From Escherichia phage PH1061: a stretch of DNA of 39,968 nucleotides. Both the position numbers and the translations under genes were made by a program. The notes beneath the pieces are model-generated. The model worked only from the letters and a program-made list of their open reading frames with translations. It was not told where the DNA came from and did not search any database. Below are positions 1-39,968 of the stretch, in pieces. Location: sequence record OQ680138.1, one strand, 5' to 3'. Positions within the stretch are counted from its first letter, which is position 1; each line of letters begins with the position of its first letter.

Positions 1-111
1 ACTCATGGTGACTTCAGTCATCTTCACGCTAACCCACTGATATGCAAGTAATTCTGACTTAACTATCACTATAGGACTCAAGGTCTAAGACTCCAAGTGA
101 AAGACCAAAGA
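1..111. repeat. Window-end overlap: 1..111 is identical to 39858..39968 (circular-permutation or assembly wrap); includes the 3' end of the last early ORF (1..51) and a phage promoter
   Basis: Direct comparison of the first and last lines of the window: actcatggtgacttcag...caagtgaaagaccaaaga is present at both ends. Confidence 0.95.
57..79 (+). promoter_or_regulatory. Phage RNAP promoter, consensus TTAACTATCACTATAGGA, +1 G near 74, upstream of the RNAP gene
   Basis: Matches the 11-copy consensus in the unique genome; duplicate of 39914..39936. Confidence 0.7.
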
Positions 112-148: not shown

Positions 149-2830
149 ATGAGCGTCATCTCCATTGACAAACACGACTTCTCCGATGTGTCGAACGCCA
201 TTGAGCCGTTTAACCTGCTGGCTGACCACTACGGGCAGGACCTTGCAGTCAAACAGCTTCAGCTTGAGCATGAGGCATACACTGAAGGCGAGCGACGTTT
301 CATCAAGAACCTTGAGCGCCAGACTGAGCGCGGGGAACTGGCAGACAATCAGGTCGCCAAGCCTTTGATGCAGACTCTGGTTCCTAAGATTGCACAAGCC
401 GTCAAGGAGTGGCACGAAGGCCAAGACGGGAAGCTGTCAACCTCTCGTCCGAGCGTAGCGTTCACCATGTTGAGCACTGAAGAGAAGGCCGTAAAGGACC
501 GCTCTCTGCGCATCTCCTGTGAGTCTGCTGCGGTTATCATACTGAAGGTCATCCTCTCCAAGCTGGTCAAGCCTGAAGGGATACCGATTACACCGATGGC
601 CTCAGCGATAGGCCGCACACTTGAGGATGAAATACGCTTCGGTCGCATCCGTGACAAGGAGCAGGAGCACTTCAAGAAGGCGATAGCTGAGAACCTGAAC
701 AAGCGAGCTGGTGCATCCTATAAGAAAGCCTACATGCAAGCGGTCGAGACCTCCATGCTGGAGCAAGGACAATTGGAAGACGCGTGGGGTACTTGGAGTC
801 CGACAGAGGCTGTCCACGTTGGCATCAAGATGCTCGAGATTGTCATCCAGTCAACACAACTGGTCGAGCTTAAGCGGTACGGTGCTGGTAATGCAGCGGC
901 TGACGTAGAGATGGTCCACCTGTCAGACTTCTGGGTCAAGAAGATGGCACAACGTGGATTCAGCCTTGCGGGTATCGCACCAGTTTATCAGCCTTGCGTC
1001 GTTCCTCCTAAGCCGTGGATGGGTGTCGTAGGTGGTGGGTACTGGGCCAAAGGTCGCAGACCGTTACCAATGATTCGCTTAGGGTCCAAGTCTGCGTTGG
1101 CACGTTATGAAGACGTGTACATGCCTGAAGTCTATGACGCTGTTAACATCATCCAGAATACACCTTGGAAAGTGAACAAGAAGGTACTGGACGTGGTGAA
1201 CATGGTCGAGAAGCTGAACAACACGCCTATTGATGACATCCCTCAAATGGAACCACTGAAGCCTGAGGACTATGCAGGTGAGACCGAGGAGGAACTCAAG
1301 GCATGGAAGAAGGCTGCGGCTGGTATCTATCGCCGCGAGAAGGCCAGACAGTCACGCAGGTTGTCACTGAGCTTTATCGTTAACCAAGCGAACAAGTTCT
1401 CTCAGTTCAAGGCCATCTGGTTCCCGTACAACATGGACTGGCGAGGTCGTGTCTACGCTGTACCGATGTTCAACCCTCAGGGTAACGACATGCAGAAGGG
1501 TCTCCTGACTCTGGCAGTCGGCAAGCCCATTGGTGCTGATGGTTTCAAATGGCTGAAGGTCCACGGTGCAAACTGTGCGGGTGTCGATAAAGTCACCTTC
1601 GAGGAGCGCATCAAGTGGGTGGAAGACCACCACGACAACATCATGGCTACTGCTAAGGCACCGATGGACAGCATTGAGTGGTGGGGAAAGTTAGACTCTC
1701 CGTTCTGCTTCCTTGCGTTCTGCTTCGAGTATGCTGGAGTAATGCATCACGGCCTGTCTTACTCATGCTCGCTACCGATAGCGTTCGATGGGTCCTGCTC
1801 TGGGATTCAGCACTTCAGCGCGATGCTGAGGGACCACGTAGGCGGACATGCAGTGAACTTAACGCCGTCTGGTCAGGTGCAGGACATCTACCGTATAGTC
1901 TCAGACCGTGTGTCAGACCAGTTGAAAGAGTTATTACTGAGCGGTACGGACGACGAGCTGGTGACCGTAGAGGACAAGAAGACTGGGGAAATCAGCGAAC
2001 GCCTGAAGCTTGGGACCAAGAGTCTTGCGCGTCAGTGGCTGGCCTACGGTATGTCACGCAAGGTCACTAAGCGTTCTGTCATGACTCTGGCCTATGGGTC
2101 GAAAGAGTACGGCTTCGCAGACCAAGTATACGAGGATATCGTGATGCCAGCGATTGACTCAGGGTCTGGCGCTATGTTCACTGAACCAAGCCAAGCGTCT
2201 CGCTTCATGGCTAAGATGATTTGGGAAGCTGTGAGTGTGACAGTAGTTGCTGCGGTTGACGCGATGAAGTGGCTTCAAGGTGCTGCCAAGTTGCTGGCTG
2301 CTGAAGTGAAGGACAAGAAGACTGGTGAAATCCTGAAGCCTTGCCTTCCGGTACACTGGGTAACACCTGATGGTTTCCCGGTCTGGCAGGAATACCGCAA
2401 GAAGGATACCACACGTTTGAACCTGATGTTCTTAGGGTCATTCAACCTTCAGCCTACAGTCAACAAAGGCACGAAGAAAGAGCTGGACAAGCACAAGCAG
2501 GAGTCAGGAATTAGCCCGAACTTCGTCCACTCACAAGATGGTAGCCACCTCCGCAAGACTGTAGTTCACACGCATCGCAAGTATGGCGTGATGTCATTCG
2601 CAGTGATTCACGATAGCTTCGGGACCATCCCGGCTGACGCTGAGTATCTGTTCCGTGGTGTCCGTGAGACGATGGTAGAGACCTACCGCGACAACGATGT
2701 GCTGCTTGACTTCTACGAGCAGTTTGAATACCAGCTTCACGAGAGCCAGCGCGACAAGTTGCCTGAGCTTCCGAAGAAAGGTAAACTGAATATTGAAGAC
2801 ATCTTGTCTTCAGACTTTGCATTCGCTTAA
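149..2830 (+). CDS. 1: Single-subunit DNA-directed RNA polymerase (T7 gene 1 homolog), 893 aa
   Basis: Near-colinear with T7 RNAP from memory; motifs DGSCSGIQHFSAMLRD, HDSFGT and C-terminal FAFA present. Confidence 0.97.
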   Translation: MSVISIDKHDFSDVSNAIEPFNLLADHYGQDLAVKQLQLEHEAYTEGERRFIKNLERQTERGELADNQVAKPLMQTLVPKIAQAVKEWHEGQDGKLSTSRPSVAFTMLSTEEKAVKDRSLRISCESAAVIILKVILSKLVKPEGIPITPMASAIGRTLEDEIRFGRIRDKEQEHFKKAIAENLNKRAGASYKKAYMQAVETSMLEQGQLEDAWGTWSPTEAVHVGIKMLEIVIQSTQLVELKRYGAGNAAADVEMVHLSDFWVKKMAQRGFSLAGIAPVYQPCVVPPKPWMGVVGGGYWAKGRRPLPMIRLGSKSALARYEDVYMPEVYDAVNIIQNTPWKVNKKVLDVVNMVEKLNNTPIDDIPQMEPLKPEDYAGETEEELKAWKKAAAGIYRREKARQSRRLSLSFIVNQANKFSQFKAIWFPYNMDWRGRVYAVPMFNPQGNDMQKGLLTLAVGKPIGADGFKWLKVHGANCAGVDKVTFEERIKWVEDHHDNIMATAKAPMDSIEWWGKLDSPFCFLAFCFEYAGVMHHGLSYSCSLPIAFDGSCSGIQHFSAMLRDHVGGHAVNLTPSGQVQDIYRIVSDRVSDQLKELLLSGTDDELVTVEDKKTGEISERLKLGTKSLARQWLAYGMSRKVTKRSVMTLAYGSKEYGFADQVYEDIVMPAIDSGSGAMFTEPSQASRFMAKMIWEAVSVTVVAAVDAMKWLQGAAKLLAAEVKDKKTGEILKPCLPVHWVTPDGFPVWQEYRKKDTTRLNLMFLGSFNLQPTVNKGTKKELDKHKQESGISPNFVHSQDGSHLRKTVVHTHRKYGVMSFAVIHDSFGTIPADAEYLFRGVRETMVETYRDNDVLLDFYEQFEYQLHESQRDKLPELPKKGKLNIEDILSSDFAFA

Positions 2831-2845
2831 CAGGAGAAGAAGTAT

Positions 2846-3076
2846 ATGTCAATGAAACTTGTAGCACACAATAGAGTATTCAACGATGGGTCGGGAACTT
2901 GCCATGTAGAGCTGACTTATAAGGATTTAGTCATTCTCCGAGACAGATTACAAGCTGGTGTGACCGGGTGGATTCAACCTAACGAGTACAGCCTTATAGC
3001 CTCGATTGATGAAGTGCTTAAAGCGTGGATGGAAGACGAGCGCACTCAATATCCGTCATTCCCTATTATTAGATAA
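2846..3076 (+). CDS. Hypothetical protein, 76 aa, between gene 1 and gene 1.1 (no T7 counterpart recalled)
   Basis: ORF with RBS AGGAGAAGAAGTAT before ATG; tightly packed after RNAP. Confidence 0.6.
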   Translation: MSMKLVAHNRVFNDGSGTCHVELTYKDLVILRDRLQAGVTGWIQPNEYSLIASIDEVLKAWMEDERTQYPSFPIIR

Positions 3077-3086
3077 GGAGAGAGTT

Positions 3087-3302
3087 ATGAAATTTGCACA
3101 CAAGCAGGCTGGCGTTAAGGGCGGGACTCAGATCGTGACCGTAACAGAACACAACGGAAAGGGTCTGGTGAAGACCACGGTCATTCCTACCGAAATGTCA
3201 AAGCAGCTTAACGTCCCATTCAAGACCCTCGTCTATCTTGTGGAATCCAGCCACGAGAAATACCTGAAAGACGTAGTGTCAAAGCTGGAGCAGACCAAAT
3301 GA
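3087..3302 (+). CDS. Hypothetical protein, 71 aa
   Basis: Internal ATG of track ORF 3006..3302 preceded by RBS AAGGAGAGAGTT; the upstream part of the track ORF overlaps the previous gene. Confidence 0.55.
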   Translation: MKFAHKQAGVKGGTQIVTVTEHNGKGLVKTTVIPTEMSKQLNVPFKTLVYLVESSHEKYLKDVVSKLEQTK

Positions 3303-3376
3303 CAGACCTCCAGTTACTGGCCTTGTGGCTGGGAGCACTCGCAGTATTCACTTTAATCCAACGCAGAAGAGGTTAA
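3299..3376 (+). CDS. Possible small hydrophobic peptide (25 aa, MTDLQLLALWLGALAVFTLIQRRRG)
   Basis: ATGA start-stop overlap with the preceding ORF; single predicted TM helix; below the track size cutoff. Confidence 0.3.
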   Translation: MTDLQLLALWLGALAVFTLIQRRRG

Positions 3377-3399
3377 CCTAAACTATCACTATAGGATTA
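3377..3399 (+). promoter_or_regulatory. Phage RNAP promoter (phi1.1-like), CTAAACTATCACTATAGGA, +1 near 3394
   Basis: Consensus match. Confidence 0.8.
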
Positions 3400-3404
3400 G
3401 ACTC

Positions 3405-3431
3405 AAGGTCATGACTCAAAGTCGTGGCCTT
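3405..3431 (+). promoter_or_regulatory. RNase III-type processing hairpin (R1.1-like): 11-bp stem AAGGUCAUGAC / GUCGUGGCCUU, 5-nt loop
   Basis: Stem-loop read from sequence; paralogous to hairpins at 11404 and 34622 with compensatory changes; position matches T7 R1.1. Confidence 0.65.
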
Positions 3432-3473
3432 CATGATTAACCCTATAACCTAAACAACTGGAGATTTAACCAC

Positions 3474-3653
3474 ATGTATCAGAACACTATCAACTTAGAG
3501 CGCATCCGTGAACGTCAGCAGACTGAAGATTACATTCCTAAGGGCCGAAAGCTGAACAAGACCAAGCGTGGCGGTGGTGTCAAGGGTGCTTTCCGTAATG
3601 CTGAAGGCAAAGACTCTATGGTCAACCAAGAGAAATACTTCGTAGGAGCATAA
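3474..3653 (+). CDS. 1.1: Gene 1.1-like small basic protein, 59 aa
   Basis: KGRKLNKTKR motif matches T7 gp1.1 as recalled; RBS GGAG upstream; below track cutoff. Confidence 0.7.
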   Translation: MYQNTINLERIRERQQTEDYIPKGRKLNKTKRGGGVKGAFRNAEGKDSMVNQEKYFVGA

Positions 3654-3657
3654 CGCT

Positions 3658-3915
3658 ATGGGCCGACTTTATAGTGGCAACCTAAACGCTTTCAAAGCAG
3701 CGTGGAACAGGCTCTATCAGTTAGACTTCTGCGTGATACAGCAGGATTGGTACGATGCGCATCTTCGGAAAGAGTGCATGAGACTTCAAGTCGAGGACCG
3801 AGCTGGTAACATCTTCGCGCTTAAGACCTTCGCACACCGCGATGAAGACGTACTGTACAACACTGCAACAGGCTTCCTTAACTGTCTCGCTAACCAACTA
3901 GACACATGGAGATAA
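3658..3915 (+). CDS. 1.2: Gene 1.2 protein (inhibitor of host dGTP triphosphohydrolase), 85 aa
   Basis: N-terminus MGRLYSGNLNAFKAA matches T7 gp1.2; same length as T7 (85 aa). Confidence 0.85.
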   Translation: MGRLYSGNLNAFKAAWNRLYQLDFCVIQQDWYDAHLRKECMRLQVEDRAGNIFALKTFAHRDEDVLYNTATGFLNCLANQLDTWR

Positions 3916-3919
3916 CACA

Positions 3920-4942
3920 ATGACAACTATTAAAACTAACCCGCACCGCGCTGTAGATTACTCTGAGTCTGGTATTAAGAAGGCTCTGGAAGCTGCCGGG
4001 TCTCTAGAAGCTGAAGTGAAGTACGATGGTGTACGGTTGAACCTCCCGGTGCTTCGAGAGGGTGAGACCTATTGGTTAAGCCGTGAGTCTAAACCACTGC
4101 CAGCACTTGAGTGGATGAACTCTGAGTTAGGCAATGCGTGGACTCAGGCTGACTGGAGGTGGTTCCTTCGTCAAGCTGGCTATGAAGGTATCGGCCTTAT
4201 GATTGACGGCGAGGTCATGGTCAAAGGTGTTGACTTTAATACGTCCTCAGGTCTCATCCGAACGAAGTGGCTCAAGCCTAACAACGAGGAGTTCGCTGAA
4301 TGCTATCCGGGCCGTGGCAAGAAGGTCCCGTTCTGGGTAGCCAGGTCACGACTTCAGGTTGTGGTATATGGCGTTGTCGATATGACAACCATAGCAGACC
4401 CGAAAGCCGAAGGTCCTATCCATAGCGTCACACGCCTGAAGGCCGAAGCTATCGTCCCTCTCCTCCAGAAATACTTCCCGGAAATCGACTGGGTATTATC
4501 TGAGAGTCATACAGTGTTTAGCTTAGACGAGCTTACTGACTTGTATGAGAAGAAGAGAGAAGAGGGCCATGAGGGTCTGGTGGTTAAAGACCCACTTGGA
4601 CGCTGGAAGCGTGGCAAGAAGTCAGGTATGTTCAAGATGAAACCAAGCGAAGAGGCGGACGGTCACGTTGTGCGCCCTGTGTGGGGTACGGATGGCCTAG
4701 CCAACGAAGGCATGGTCATCGGATTTGACGTGATGCTCGAGAACGGGATGGAGGTCTCCGCAACTAACATTAGTCGCGCCCTTATGTCTGAGTTCACCGA
4801 AAACGTTAAGTCCGACCCTGATTATTATAAAGGCTGGGCCTGCCAGATTACCTACATGGAGGAGACACCAAGTGGCTTACTACGGCATCCCTCGTTCGAC
4901 CGGTGGCGTGGAACTGAGGACGACCCTACGGTCAAGATTTAA
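3920..4942 (+). CDS. 1.3: ATP-dependent DNA ligase, 340 aa
   Basis: Adenylation motif KYDGVR (EVKYDGVRLN); position after gene 1.2 as in T7. Confidence 0.9.
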   Translation: MTTIKTNPHRAVDYSESGIKKALEAAGSLEAEVKYDGVRLNLPVLREGETYWLSRESKPLPALEWMNSELGNAWTQADWRWFLRQAGYEGIGLMIDGEVMVKGVDFNTSSGLIRTKWLKPNNEEFAECYPGRGKKVPFWVARSRLQVVVYGVVDMTTIADPKAEGPIHSVTRLKAEAIVPLLQKYFPEIDWVLSESHTVFSLDELTDLYEKKREEGHEGLVVKDPLGRWKRGKKSGMFKMKPSEEADGHVVRPVWGTDGLANEGMVIGFDVMLENGMEVSATNISRALMSEFTENVKSDPDYYKGWACQITYMEETPSGLLRHPSFDRWRGTEDDPTVKI

Positions 4943-4952
4943 AGCAGACAGG

Positions 4953-5333
4953 ATGGCTCCCTCTGGAGTCTCCAACCTAAACGGTAGACATCTTGGTTAT
5001 AGACGAAAGGATGGGTACTGGATTCTAAGTACGACAAAGGGCCAACTGCTGGCCCACCGAGTAGTCTGGGAACTAACCCACGGCCAGATACCAGAAGGGA
5101 TGGTGATTGATCATATCAACCGGGACCCTTCGGATAACAGGATTGAGAACCTCAGGTGTGTGACTCAGGCGGTGAACCTCACTAACGTTCCAACCCGTAG
5201 TCACTGCCAATCTGGAGAGAAATACGTTCAATACCAGAAATCAACTGGTCGCTGGCAACTGAGGATAAAGCGTAAGTCATACGGTACGTTCGATACCATA
5301 GCCGAGGCGGTAGCCTTAAGAGATTCATTATAA
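4953..5333 (+). CDS. HNH homing endonuclease with C-terminal AP2-type DNA-binding domain
   Basis: Motif DHINRDPSDNRIENLR followed by an AP2-like segment GEKYVQYQKSTGRWQLRIKRKSYGTFDTIAEAVALRD; start set at the first ATG after the ligase stop (track ORF begins inside ligase). Confidence 0.8.
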   Translation: MAPSGVSNLNGRHLGYRRKDGYWILSTTKGQLLAHRVVWELTHGQIPEGMVIDHINRDPSDNRIENLRCVTQAVNLTNVPTRSHCQSGEKYVQYQKSTGRWQLRIKRKSYGTFDTIAEAVALRDSL

Positions 5334-5339
5334 CGTCAA

Positions 5340-5378
5340 CCCAGTGGTCTCATGACTGCTGGGTTTCTCTGCTTTGTG
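5340..5378 (+). terminator. Rho-independent terminator (early terminator TE analog): 10-bp stem CCCAGUGGUC / GACUGCUGGG, loop UCAU, then U-rich tail
   Basis: Read from sequence; located after ligase/HNH as T7 TE follows gene 1.3. Confidence 0.65.
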
Positions 5379-5411
5379 CTATCAATCTATCATCTGGGCC
5401 ACCAGGCTGAC

Positions 5412-5434
5412 CCTAAGCTATCACTATAGGACAA
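5412..5434 (+). promoter_or_regulatory. Phage RNAP promoter variant, TAAGCTATCACTATAGGA, +1 near 5429
   Basis: One mismatch to consensus at about -13. Confidence 0.7.
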
Positions 5435-5723: not shown

Positions 5724-6159
5724 GGTTGGGGATACAGTTGAATATGTTGGACCTGTTAAAGCCTACATGGGACTCTCCTGTGGCAAGGTGATTATGGTTA
5801 GAATGGGGCACATAGTTGTTGTTAAGTGGCCCTGTTCACCTGAACCAGTCATTCACTCCTCTAGTGCCTTAAGTATTACCAATCAGGAGCAGGCTGAGAC
5901 GCCAACCATAGGTCAGGAAGACAGCGTCCGTAAGCCGTCACACTATCAGGTCTTTGACGGTGTGGAATCCATTGGGATTATCGCTCGGTCCATGACTGTC
6001 AGTGAGTTCCGTGGTTTCTGCATGGGTAACGTCCTGAAGTATCGACTCCGAGCTGGTAAGAAGTCAGAGCTGGCGACTATGGAGAAGGACCTGAACAAAG
6101 CAGCCTTCTATCAGGAGCTGTTCGACCTGCATAAAGGTAAGTGCTATGACTCCAAGTAG
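5716..6159 (+). CDS. 1.7: Gene 1.7-like protein (T7 gp1.7 nucleotide kinase family), 147 aa, with a divergent N-terminal part
   Basis: C-terminal KPSHYQVFDGVESIGIIARSMTVSEFRGFCMGNVLKYRLRAGKKSELATMEKDLNKAAFYQELF matches the T7 gp1.7 C-terminus as recalled. Confidence 0.75.
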   Translation: MLKVGDTVEYVGPVKAYMGLSCGKVIMVRMGHIVVVKWPCSPEPVIHSSSALSITNQEQAETPTIGQEDSVRKPSHYQVFDGVESIGIIARSMTVSEFRGFCMGNVLKYRLRAGKKSELATMEKDLNKAAFYQELFDLHKGKCYDSK

Positions 6160-38413: not shown

Positions 38414-38923
38414 ATGGAACGTAACGCTAACGCGTACTATGAGCTGCTGGCTGCAACTGTTGAAGCATTTAACGAGTGCATTCAGTACGACAAAATAGCT
38501 GAAGGTGATGACTACCATGATGTGCTGCATGAAGTCGTAGATAGTCATGTTCCGCACTATTACCACGAGATTTTCACGGTGATGGCTGCTGATGGTATAG
38601 ACATTGAGTTTGAGGACACTGGGCTGATGCCTGAGACCAAGGACGTAACGCGTATACTGCAGGCTCGCATCTATGAGGCATTGTATAACGACGTGTCTAA
38701 TAGCTCGGATGTGGTCTGGTTTGAGGCTGAAGAGAGCGACGAGGATGACGAATATTGGGTGGTTGACGCTACGACAGGTGTAATCATTGAGCAAGCTGTA
38801 TCACTTGATGTCGCTACTGCATGTGCCAAAGATCACTATGCGCTAGGTCGCCACCTGAAGGTCGAGGACATCAACGATAACGTAGTGTTCGACCCTGCGG
38901 CTGCTGAAGAGGACTGCGAGTAA
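38414..38923 (+). CDS. 0.3: Ocr-like DNA-mimic anti-restriction protein (gene 0.3) with a roughly 50 aa C-terminal extension, 169 aa
   Basis: [45 protein letters not shown] matches T7 Ocr [45 protein letters not shown]; T7 Ocr is 117 aa. Confidence 0.9.
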
Positions 38924-39582: not shown

Positions 39583-39908
39583 TGAGTAAATCTTATGGCA
39601 TCAACTTGGTCCATGCATTTGACGCAGACCTTAATCTGCTTTCAGCACTAGCTACAGGCTACCGTCACGGGACCTCAAGTCACACCATTCGTCAACAGCA
39701 GGAGCGTGACCGTGTACTACAGGCACGACTACGGGCCGAGGGACATAAGGCCGAGCTGATGTGTCTGGCGTATGGTGGACGACCAATCACCGACGATGGT
39801 AAACTTCTGGTCTCAGGCTGGAAGGCGATAGACCAACGGTCAACCATCAAGCACACGACTCATGGTGACTTCAGTCATCTTCACGCTAACCCACTGATAT
39901 GCAAGTAA
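39582..39908 (+). CDS. Hypothetical early protein, 108 aa, at the position of T7 gene 0.7; no protein-kinase motifs
   Basis: TAATG coupling with the previous ORF; the 3' end is duplicated at window positions 1..51. Confidence 0.6.
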   Translation: MSKSYGINLVHAFDADLNLLSALATGYRHGTSSHTIRQQQERDRVLQARLRAEGHKAELMCLAYGGRPITDDGKLLVSGWKAIDQRSTIKHTTHGDFSHLHANPLICK

Positions 39909-39913
39909 TTCTG

Positions 39914-39936
39914 ACTTAACTATCACTATAGGACTC
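39914..39936 (+). promoter_or_regulatory. Phage RNAP promoter upstream of the RNAP gene (same element as 57..79)
   Basis: TTAACTATCACTATAGGA. Confidence 0.7.
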
Positions 39937-39968
39937 AAGGTCTAAGACTCCAAGTGAAAGACCAAAGA

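Follow-up and report, generated by a model that had tools for sequence, protein, structure and literature searches.

The 39,968-nucleotide (nt) sequence of Escherichia phage PH1061 (OQ680138.1; 'the window' below means the whole of this stretch) carries three short open reading frames (ORFs) in the slot between gene 1, which encodes the phage RNA polymerase (RNAP), and the phi1.1-type promoter that precedes the gene 1.1 homologue. These are ORF A, ORF B and a 25-codon frame that we call pep25 (Table 1). Our preferred reading, which we hold to be somewhat probable as a whole, is that they are three genuine small genes borne on the gene 1 transcript of the genus Kayfunavirus, and that they would likely have a non-structural, early role in modifying the host or countering its defences. 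The initial annotation had proposed two ORFs of 76 and 71 amino acids (aa), each preceded by a ribosome-binding site. The coordinates and the Shine–Dalgarno (SD) motifs of both were borne out by our analysis, and both were found to be under purifying selection in their own frames.

The window phage is a Kayfunavirus (K1F-like). The region was 92-95% identical at the nucleotide level to about 40 Kayfunavirus genomes, and the gene 1 protein showed 95-99% identity to 168 Kayfunavirus records and 62.8% identity to T7 RNAP. The initial annotation had described the ORFs as extra, pointing out that T7 has no genes between gene 1 and the phi1.1 promoters. The statement about T7 was correct, the T7 record having no coding sequence between gene 1 (which ends at 5822) and gene 1.1 (6007), just the promoters phi1.1A and phi1.1B. 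However, since the window is a Kayfunavirus, the three ORFs are extra relative to T7 only: within the genus ORF B and pep25 were universal, and in T3 and K11 the slot between gene 1 and phi1.1 is occupied by gene 1.05, which has its own promoter, phi1.05. The window differs from T3 and K11 in having neither a phi1.05-like promoter before 3382 nor a gp1.05-like gene, and identity of ORF A, ORF B or pep25 with T3 gp1.05 was rejected (the best BLASTP match had E = 0.69 over 6 residues). The two larger ORFs are already catalogued as hypothetical genes, in PHROGs 28104 and 8082, and to that extent the finding is ordinary for the genus.

ORF B matched PHROG 8082 over its full length (E = 6.3e-41) and was present in 219 phage records at 42-100% identity, with 158 protein clusters. 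An RNAP at least 80% identical to that of the window was found in 218 records, after which there was a gap to the next identity of 64%; thus, with 219 records holding ORF B and 218 holding such an RNAP, ORF B is effectively genus-defining. Its position directly after gene 1 was shared across the 33 loci that were read. The gene at this position in K1F, gp06 (CKV1F_gp06, YP_338095.1), encodes a hypothetical protein 90% identical to ORF B and is the same gene. The ratio of non-synonymous to synonymous polymorphism (pN/pS) was 0.14 in the frame of ORF B, compared with 2.8-3.4 off frame. The protein starts MKFAHKQAGVKGGTQ and has no cysteine and no hydrophobic leader. An AlphaFold2 (AF2) model of it was confident (predicted local distance difference test, pLDDT, 93.6) and showed three antiparallel strands followed by two helices, a short one and a long C-terminal one. 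ORF B is accordingly modelled as a small, basic, soluble beta-beta-beta-alpha-alpha protein of predicted generic fold, and the only matches of the model in the BFVD viral structure library were uncharacterised phage proteins. The label 'gp1.1' given to ORF B in the EcoDS1 record was rejected, as the protein gave no Pfam match at E up to 1 and no BLASTP alignment to T7 gp1.1.

Two database sequences present ORF B in another form. In the GenBank record of PH1061 it appears as a 97-aa protein (WKV16779.1) that begins at a TTG at 3006 (3006-3302) and overlaps ORF A; this start is over-extended, because the ATG corresponding to 3087 is the start in all relatives, whether or not they have ORF A. In a 39,021-bp Logan contig from SRR31227532 (locus L038), residues 1-65 of ORF A are fused, at 1501-1779, to the last 11 codons of an ORF B of the 66-aa type. 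The former stop codon is read through there, TGA having become TGC; the bulk of ORF B is missing, and pep25 is kept as MPDLQLLALWLGALAAFTLIQRRRG. This deletion hints that ORF B can be lost.

The initial annotation had listed the 25-aa hydrophobic peptide as no more than possible, and it proved to be preceded by an SD-like motif and to be the best conserved of the three at the protein level. When pep25 was traced through the ORF B loci, it was found after ORF B in 33/33, including where ORF B was only 44% identical, and was always 78 nt (25 codons) long, with no indel or internal stop; 31 different nucleotide sequences of it were represented. Its start overlapped the stop codon of ORF B as (A/G)TGA in every locus. 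Its own stop was TAA, TGA or TAG, in the same place each time, and a nearby non-coding spacer varied between 12 and 18 nt in length. Either GGAG or GAGG lay 7-10 nt before pep25 in 31 of the 33 loci despite differing C-termini of ORF B (KLEQTK, EAATK, EEATK), the two remaining loci having GGTG or GGGG. The pN/pS ratio was 0.25 in frame and 1.1-1.2 off frame. Unique variants comprised 27 synonymous and 28 non-synonymous changes, against an expectation of 27% synonymous (binomial p = 5e-4), and the other frames gave no significant synonymous excess. The peptide was 92-100% identical even where ORF B was 44% identical. At synonymous sites the two genes diverged about equally (pS of 0.32 for pep25 and 0.34 for ORF B), so the conservation lies at the protein level and no extra constraint on the DNA is needed to explain it. 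As judged from these comparisons, the 25-aa frame is a real and strongly conserved gene that has nearly always gone unannotated, which is a modestly new point, and ORF B and pep25 form a genus-wide pair, probably coupled in translation through the ATGA overlap.

Neither K1F nor EcoDS1 has pep25 annotated, nor does any of six other Kayfunavirus records that were read throughout, and the exact peptide of the window was absent from a collection of 15 billion proteins. One annotated copy was met, GA2A_08A (YP_009324944.1) of phage GA2A, which carries the other allele, MTDLKWLALWLAFLAVYTLIQRRRG. It agrees with the window peptide in position, ATGA overlap and length, and 20/25 residues are identical; the two loci differ in what follows, which is a gp1.05-like gene in GA2A and, directly, the promoter in the window. 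In MZ234024.1 (locus L028, 926-1042) a 38-aa 'hypothetical protein' is annotated in the wrong frame. This ORF, which is probably spurious, covers pep25 together with the phi1.1 promoter and the R1.1-like hairpin, and the record does not list the true 25-aa frame.

The loci that were read fell into two arrangements downstream of pep25. In 18 of the 33 the pep25 stop and the phi1.1 promoter adjoin as in the window, whereas in the other 15 (L001, L004, L005, L007, L011-L019, L025 and L026) an ORF of about 156 aa starts 5-7 nt after the pep25 stop. This ORF resembles T3 gp1.05, with which it shares the motif TEFK.G.GPCGK.VT, and it uses the 3' end of pep25, AGAAGAGG (codons AGA AGA GGT), as its SD. 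All class-2 pep25 alleles were linked to it. On this sampling, the slot after gene 1 is always occupied in Kayfunavirus.

These arrangements raise the question of whether pep25 is conserved for something other than its peptide. Under such an explanation it would be non-functional as a product and be kept for a nucleotide-level role: as the SD of the gp1.05-like gene, as upstream sequence of the phi1.1 promoter and origin, or as a short coupling ORF that passes ribosomes on. The use of its last three codons as an SD wherever the gp1.05-like gene is present, and the start of the promoter at the next base in the other loci, are both in keeping with this idea, as is the selection signal, which was strongest in loci with the gp1.05-like gene (p = 3e-5) and marginal in those without it (p = 0.06). 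However, we consider it unlikely. The equal divergence of pep25 and ORF B at synonymous sites shows that constraint on the DNA is not raised, the synonymous excess is confined to the pep25 frame, and the length is fixed at 25 codons before three different stop codons while the non-coding spacer varies. Furthermore, substitutions between the alleles mostly keep the hydrophobic character (LGALAVF versus LAFLAVY), and the frame persists in each of the 18 loci where no gene follows to which it could be coupled.

The peptide itself carries a hydrophobic stretch of sufficient length to cross the bilayer, with charge at its flanks, as small single-pass membrane peptides do. Residues 4-20 form a 17-residue hydrophobic core with a mean Kyte–Doolittle value of 2.24 for the window allele and 1.88 for the other, and the C-terminal tail is RRRG. 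Most of the changes between the two alleles (...LWLGALAVF... and ...LWLAFLAVY...) stay hydrophobic. From its composition pep25 is predicted to be a hydrophobic helix that crosses the inner membrane once, and by the positive-inside rule the RRRG tail should be cytoplasmic and the short N-terminus periplasmic.

ORF A has a much narrower distribution than ORF B. It matched PHROG 28104 over its full length (residues 1-76 on profile positions 1-76, E = 2.8e-52), the members of which include EcoDS1 AS9_0007 and LM33_P1 gp09; these come from a subset of E. coli Kayfunaviruses and are the same gene in the same slot, annotated as hypothetical. The identical protein on record is WKV16778.1 (Escherichia phage PH1061). 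ORF A was found in 39 phage records only, nearly all of them E. coli phages, with identities of 86% or more, and in 9 clusters among 5.8 billion proteins. An allele of equal length and 45% identity occupies the same slot in locus L004, represented by one IMG/VR contig. The pN/pS ratio over 11 sequences was 0.39 in frame and 1.0-1.9 off frame, and the AF2 model was of low confidence (pLDDT 61.9). When a profile built from 11 ORF A sequences was run exhaustively with HMMER against 1.84 billion representatives, two further small metagenomic relatives emerged, P0163 (77 aa) and P0164 (86 aa). They align with the first 58-66 residues of ORF A at about 40% identity and gave reciprocal tblastn matches. 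Neither was found in cultured-phage records, IMG/VR or JGI metagenomes, and their genomic context was not recovered. Three matches of the same profile to long proteins are probably spurious, the one that was read (P0166) being repetitive. Two further candidate relationships were rejected: ORF A as a paralogue of ORF B (hhalign probability 0.2%), and ORF A as a ribbon-helix-helix regulator, suggested by a strand-helix-helix prediction, for which no matching profile or fold was found.

The junctions show how ORF A sits in the slot. Loci without it read TTCGCTTAACAGGAGAGAGTTATG, and the context AGGAGAGAGTT-ATG follows directly after the RNAP stop in them; the ORF A cassette is thus flanked by two copies of AGGAG, which suggests that it is gained or lost by recombination at the SD. 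By this comparison ORF A is an optional accessory cassette inserted within the SD of ORF B and present in about one relative in six.

An optional gene of this kind might be no more than filler, and it could be argued that neither ORF A nor ORF B contributes to fitness, both being selfish or decaying sequences ('dispensable hypothetical genes'). ORF A is absent from about 180/219 relatives, one contig shows the two genes fused by a deletion, and the neighbourhood collects mobile genes, such as the HNH endonuclease at 4872-5333. We regard this explanation as distinctly improbable for both genes, given the purifying selection acting on ORF A (pN/pS 0.39) and ORF B (0.14), the persistence of ORF B in practically all genomes of the genus, at identities as low as 42%, the diverged ORF A allele of identical length in the same slot, and the finding of no nuclease or other selfish-element domain in either product by Pfam and NCBIfam.

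The initial annotation had also expected the ORFs to be co-transcribed with RNAP, and the signals around them are consistent with this. No match to the phage-promoter core with up to 3 mismatches was found between 75 and 3382. The same interval lacked a sigma-70-like site on the + strand, and the first credible terminator is the early one at 5338-5365. As no promoter or terminator separates the three ORFs from gene 1, co-transcription with RNAP is the natural inference. Host RNAP would transcribe them early, together with gene 1, from the left-end promoters to the terminator at 5338-5365. With a perfect promoter core at 62-75, the RNAP gene and the small ORFs behind it are also open to transcription by the phage enzyme itself, and gene 1, ORF A, ORF B and pep25 would then be transcribed a second time from there. 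A promoter is annotated at the equivalent place in the EcoDS1 record. The T3 record differs: where the window has a phage promoter, the ~480 nt ahead of T3 gene 1 contain solely an E. coli promoter and the RNase III site R1. Transcription of gene 1 by the phage RNAP from an adjoining promoter should also set this phage in contrast to T7.

At the other end of the slot, the promoter equivalent to 3377-3399 is annotated in EcoDS1, T3 and K11. The hairpin just beyond it is the positional equivalent of the RNase III site R1.1 of T3 and T7, and in T3 the annotated R1.1 overlaps the phi1.1 start much as the window hairpin does. RNase III cleavage at this place is putative; the hairpin would probably form the 3' boundary of a processed gene 1-ORF A-ORF B-pep25 mRNA. 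An Rfam scan of 2700-3700 matched no RNA family. The exact core ACTATCACTATAGG has 9 copies in the window, of which the one at 39919-39932 falls in a terminal duplication, leaving 8 distinct sites. This duplication is the identity of the first 111 nt (1-111) with the last 111 nt (39858-39968), from which it follows that the window is a circularly closed, permuted whole-genome assembly, with the true left-end early region at its right end.

Table 1. Positions of gene 1, the three small ORFs and the neighbouring signals and genes in the window.
Feature	Position	Strand	Remarks
Phage-promoter core ACTATCACTATAGG	62-75	+	Exact match, 74 nt upstream of the gene 1 ATG
Gene 1, T7-type single-subunit RNA polymerase, 893 aa	149..2830	+	From the ORF list; heads the transcription unit
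SD motif AGGAG for ORF A	2832-2836	+	9 nt before the ATG; also the left edge of the ORF A cassette
ORF A, 76 aa	2846-3076	+	ATG to TAA; pI 5.5; PHROG 28104
SD motif AAGGAG for ORF B	3075-3080	+	6 nt before the ATG; overlaps the ORF A stop codon
ORF B, 71 aa	3087-3302	+	ATG to TGA; pI 9.65; PHROG 8082; equivalent to K1F gp06
SD-like GGAG for pep25	3287-3290	+	8 nt before the ATG, inside ORF B
pep25, 25 codons, MTDLQLLALWLGALAVFTLIQRRRG	3299-3376	+	ATG to TAA; ATG overlaps the ORF B TGA as ATGA
phi1.1-type phage promoter, -17 to +6	3377-3399	+	Core ACTATCACTATAGG at 3382-3395; begins at the base that adjoins the pep25 stop
Hairpin, 5' end of the phi1.1 transcript	3405-3431	+	Fold of 3394-3473: -19.9 kcal/mol, z = -3.0
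Gene 1.1 homologue, 59 aa	3474..3653	+	Right-hand landmark of the slot; Pfam Phage_1_1 (PF08200), 4.1e-09
gp1.2	start 3658		Next after gp1.1
Ligase	start 3920		Downstream of gp1.2

The surroundings of the three genes are class I genes: Ocr is encoded upstream of them, and gp1.1, gp1.2 and ligase follow. The Ocr (gp0.3) homologue, a DNA mimic of 169 aa encoded at 38414-38923, matched the Pfam ocr domain over residues 8-96 (8.5e-31) and has about 70 further, largely acidic C-terminal residues past that domain. An HNH_3 endonuclease (Pfam, 4.7e-22), which probably represents a homing endonuclease insertion, is encoded at 4872-5333; its ORF and the 3' end of the ligase gene overlap, and it stops a little short of the early terminator.

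The initial annotation assigned no function to the ORFs, and the homology and structure-prediction searches that it called for gave no assignment either. Scans of the three products with Pfam, NCBIfam and PADLOC returned nothing at E up to 1 except a meaningless Bdr match, none of the three matching a PADLOC defence profile at that threshold, and profile comparison of the ORF A and ORF B families with PDB sequences brought up no match below E = 1. BLASTP and hhalign related ORF A and ORF B neither to one another nor to gp1.05 or gp1.1. A host-directed role was instead suggested by context: the position among Ocr, gp1.1 and gp1.2, the small size and the patchy distribution make host modification or counter-defence the most likely function. 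pep25 would act at the inner membrane, and ORF A would be a strain-specific accessory factor.

Several results weigh against this reading. No function-bearing homologue was found for the three products in Pfam, NCBIfam, PADLOC or PDB sequences, nor, for the ORF A profile, among the 1.84 billion representatives searched with HMMER, and the literature searched held no study and no expression, proteomic or phenotype data on these genes. In the 18 loci of the window type, which lack the gp1.05-like gene, the synonymous excess of pep25 was marginal (10 synonymous and 13 non-synonymous changes, p = 0.06). Moreover, pep25 alleles assort independently of ORF B types, and this lack of co-variation gives no support for a tight physical complex between the two products. 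It is also conceivable, if as improbable as the filler explanation, that ORF B is a small nucleic-acid-binding regulator of the adjacent phi1.1 promoter and origin region or of the gene 1 mRNA and is not host-directed, a view to which its basic character (pI 9.65) and its closeness to a region that is the primary origin in T3 lend some weight, against which stand the failure to match any DNA-binding family by sequence and the natural contig that lacks most of ORF B.

The preferred reading of three early, host-directed genes can be drawn more sharply, in a form that we put forward as rather unlikely in its particulars. ORF B and pep25 would be a Kayfunavirus-specific coupled module, in which the peptide, with or without ORF B, disables a membrane-associated host function, for example an abortive-infection effector that acts on the membrane or the entry of a superinfecting phage, and ORF A would be a swappable anti-defence cassette directed at particular E. 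coli strains. If this were true, pep25 would represent a new, almost wholly unannotated class of small membrane effector in therapeutic phages, K1F and LM33_P1 among them.

Kayfunaviruses such as these two serve as therapeutic agents and as engineering chassis, and their early genes decide which strains are taken over. The recognition of a genus-wide pair and an optional cassette after gene 1 tells engineers what can probably be dispensed with and what is conserved. Insertions placed 'between ORF B and phi1.1' would unknowingly destroy the 25-codon gene, which is conserved but escapes standard gene callers. The scientific gain is modest, as small early phage genes of this kind are very common and nothing here points to a new mechanism.

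A hydrophobic peptide of this size in the early region has a parallel in T3, where the product of gene 1.5 (MWLILFAIVATLGLMVADDNIWPDC; locus L023, 5215-5292) also has 25 aa. The two have no sequence similarity, and their charge layouts are opposite, T3 gp1.5 having an acidic C-terminus. The window itself has a 25-codon hydrophobic candidate ORF at 5352-5429, MTAGFLCFVLSIYHLGHQADPKLSL, which overlaps the terminator and the promoter at 5417. Beyond phages, bacteria have small single-pass inner-membrane proteins and type I toxin peptides, such as KdpF, AcrZ, TisB and ShoB. pep25, whose membrane location is predicted, bears no sequence similarity to peptides of this type and is like them in its size, its one hydrophobic helix and its charged ends.
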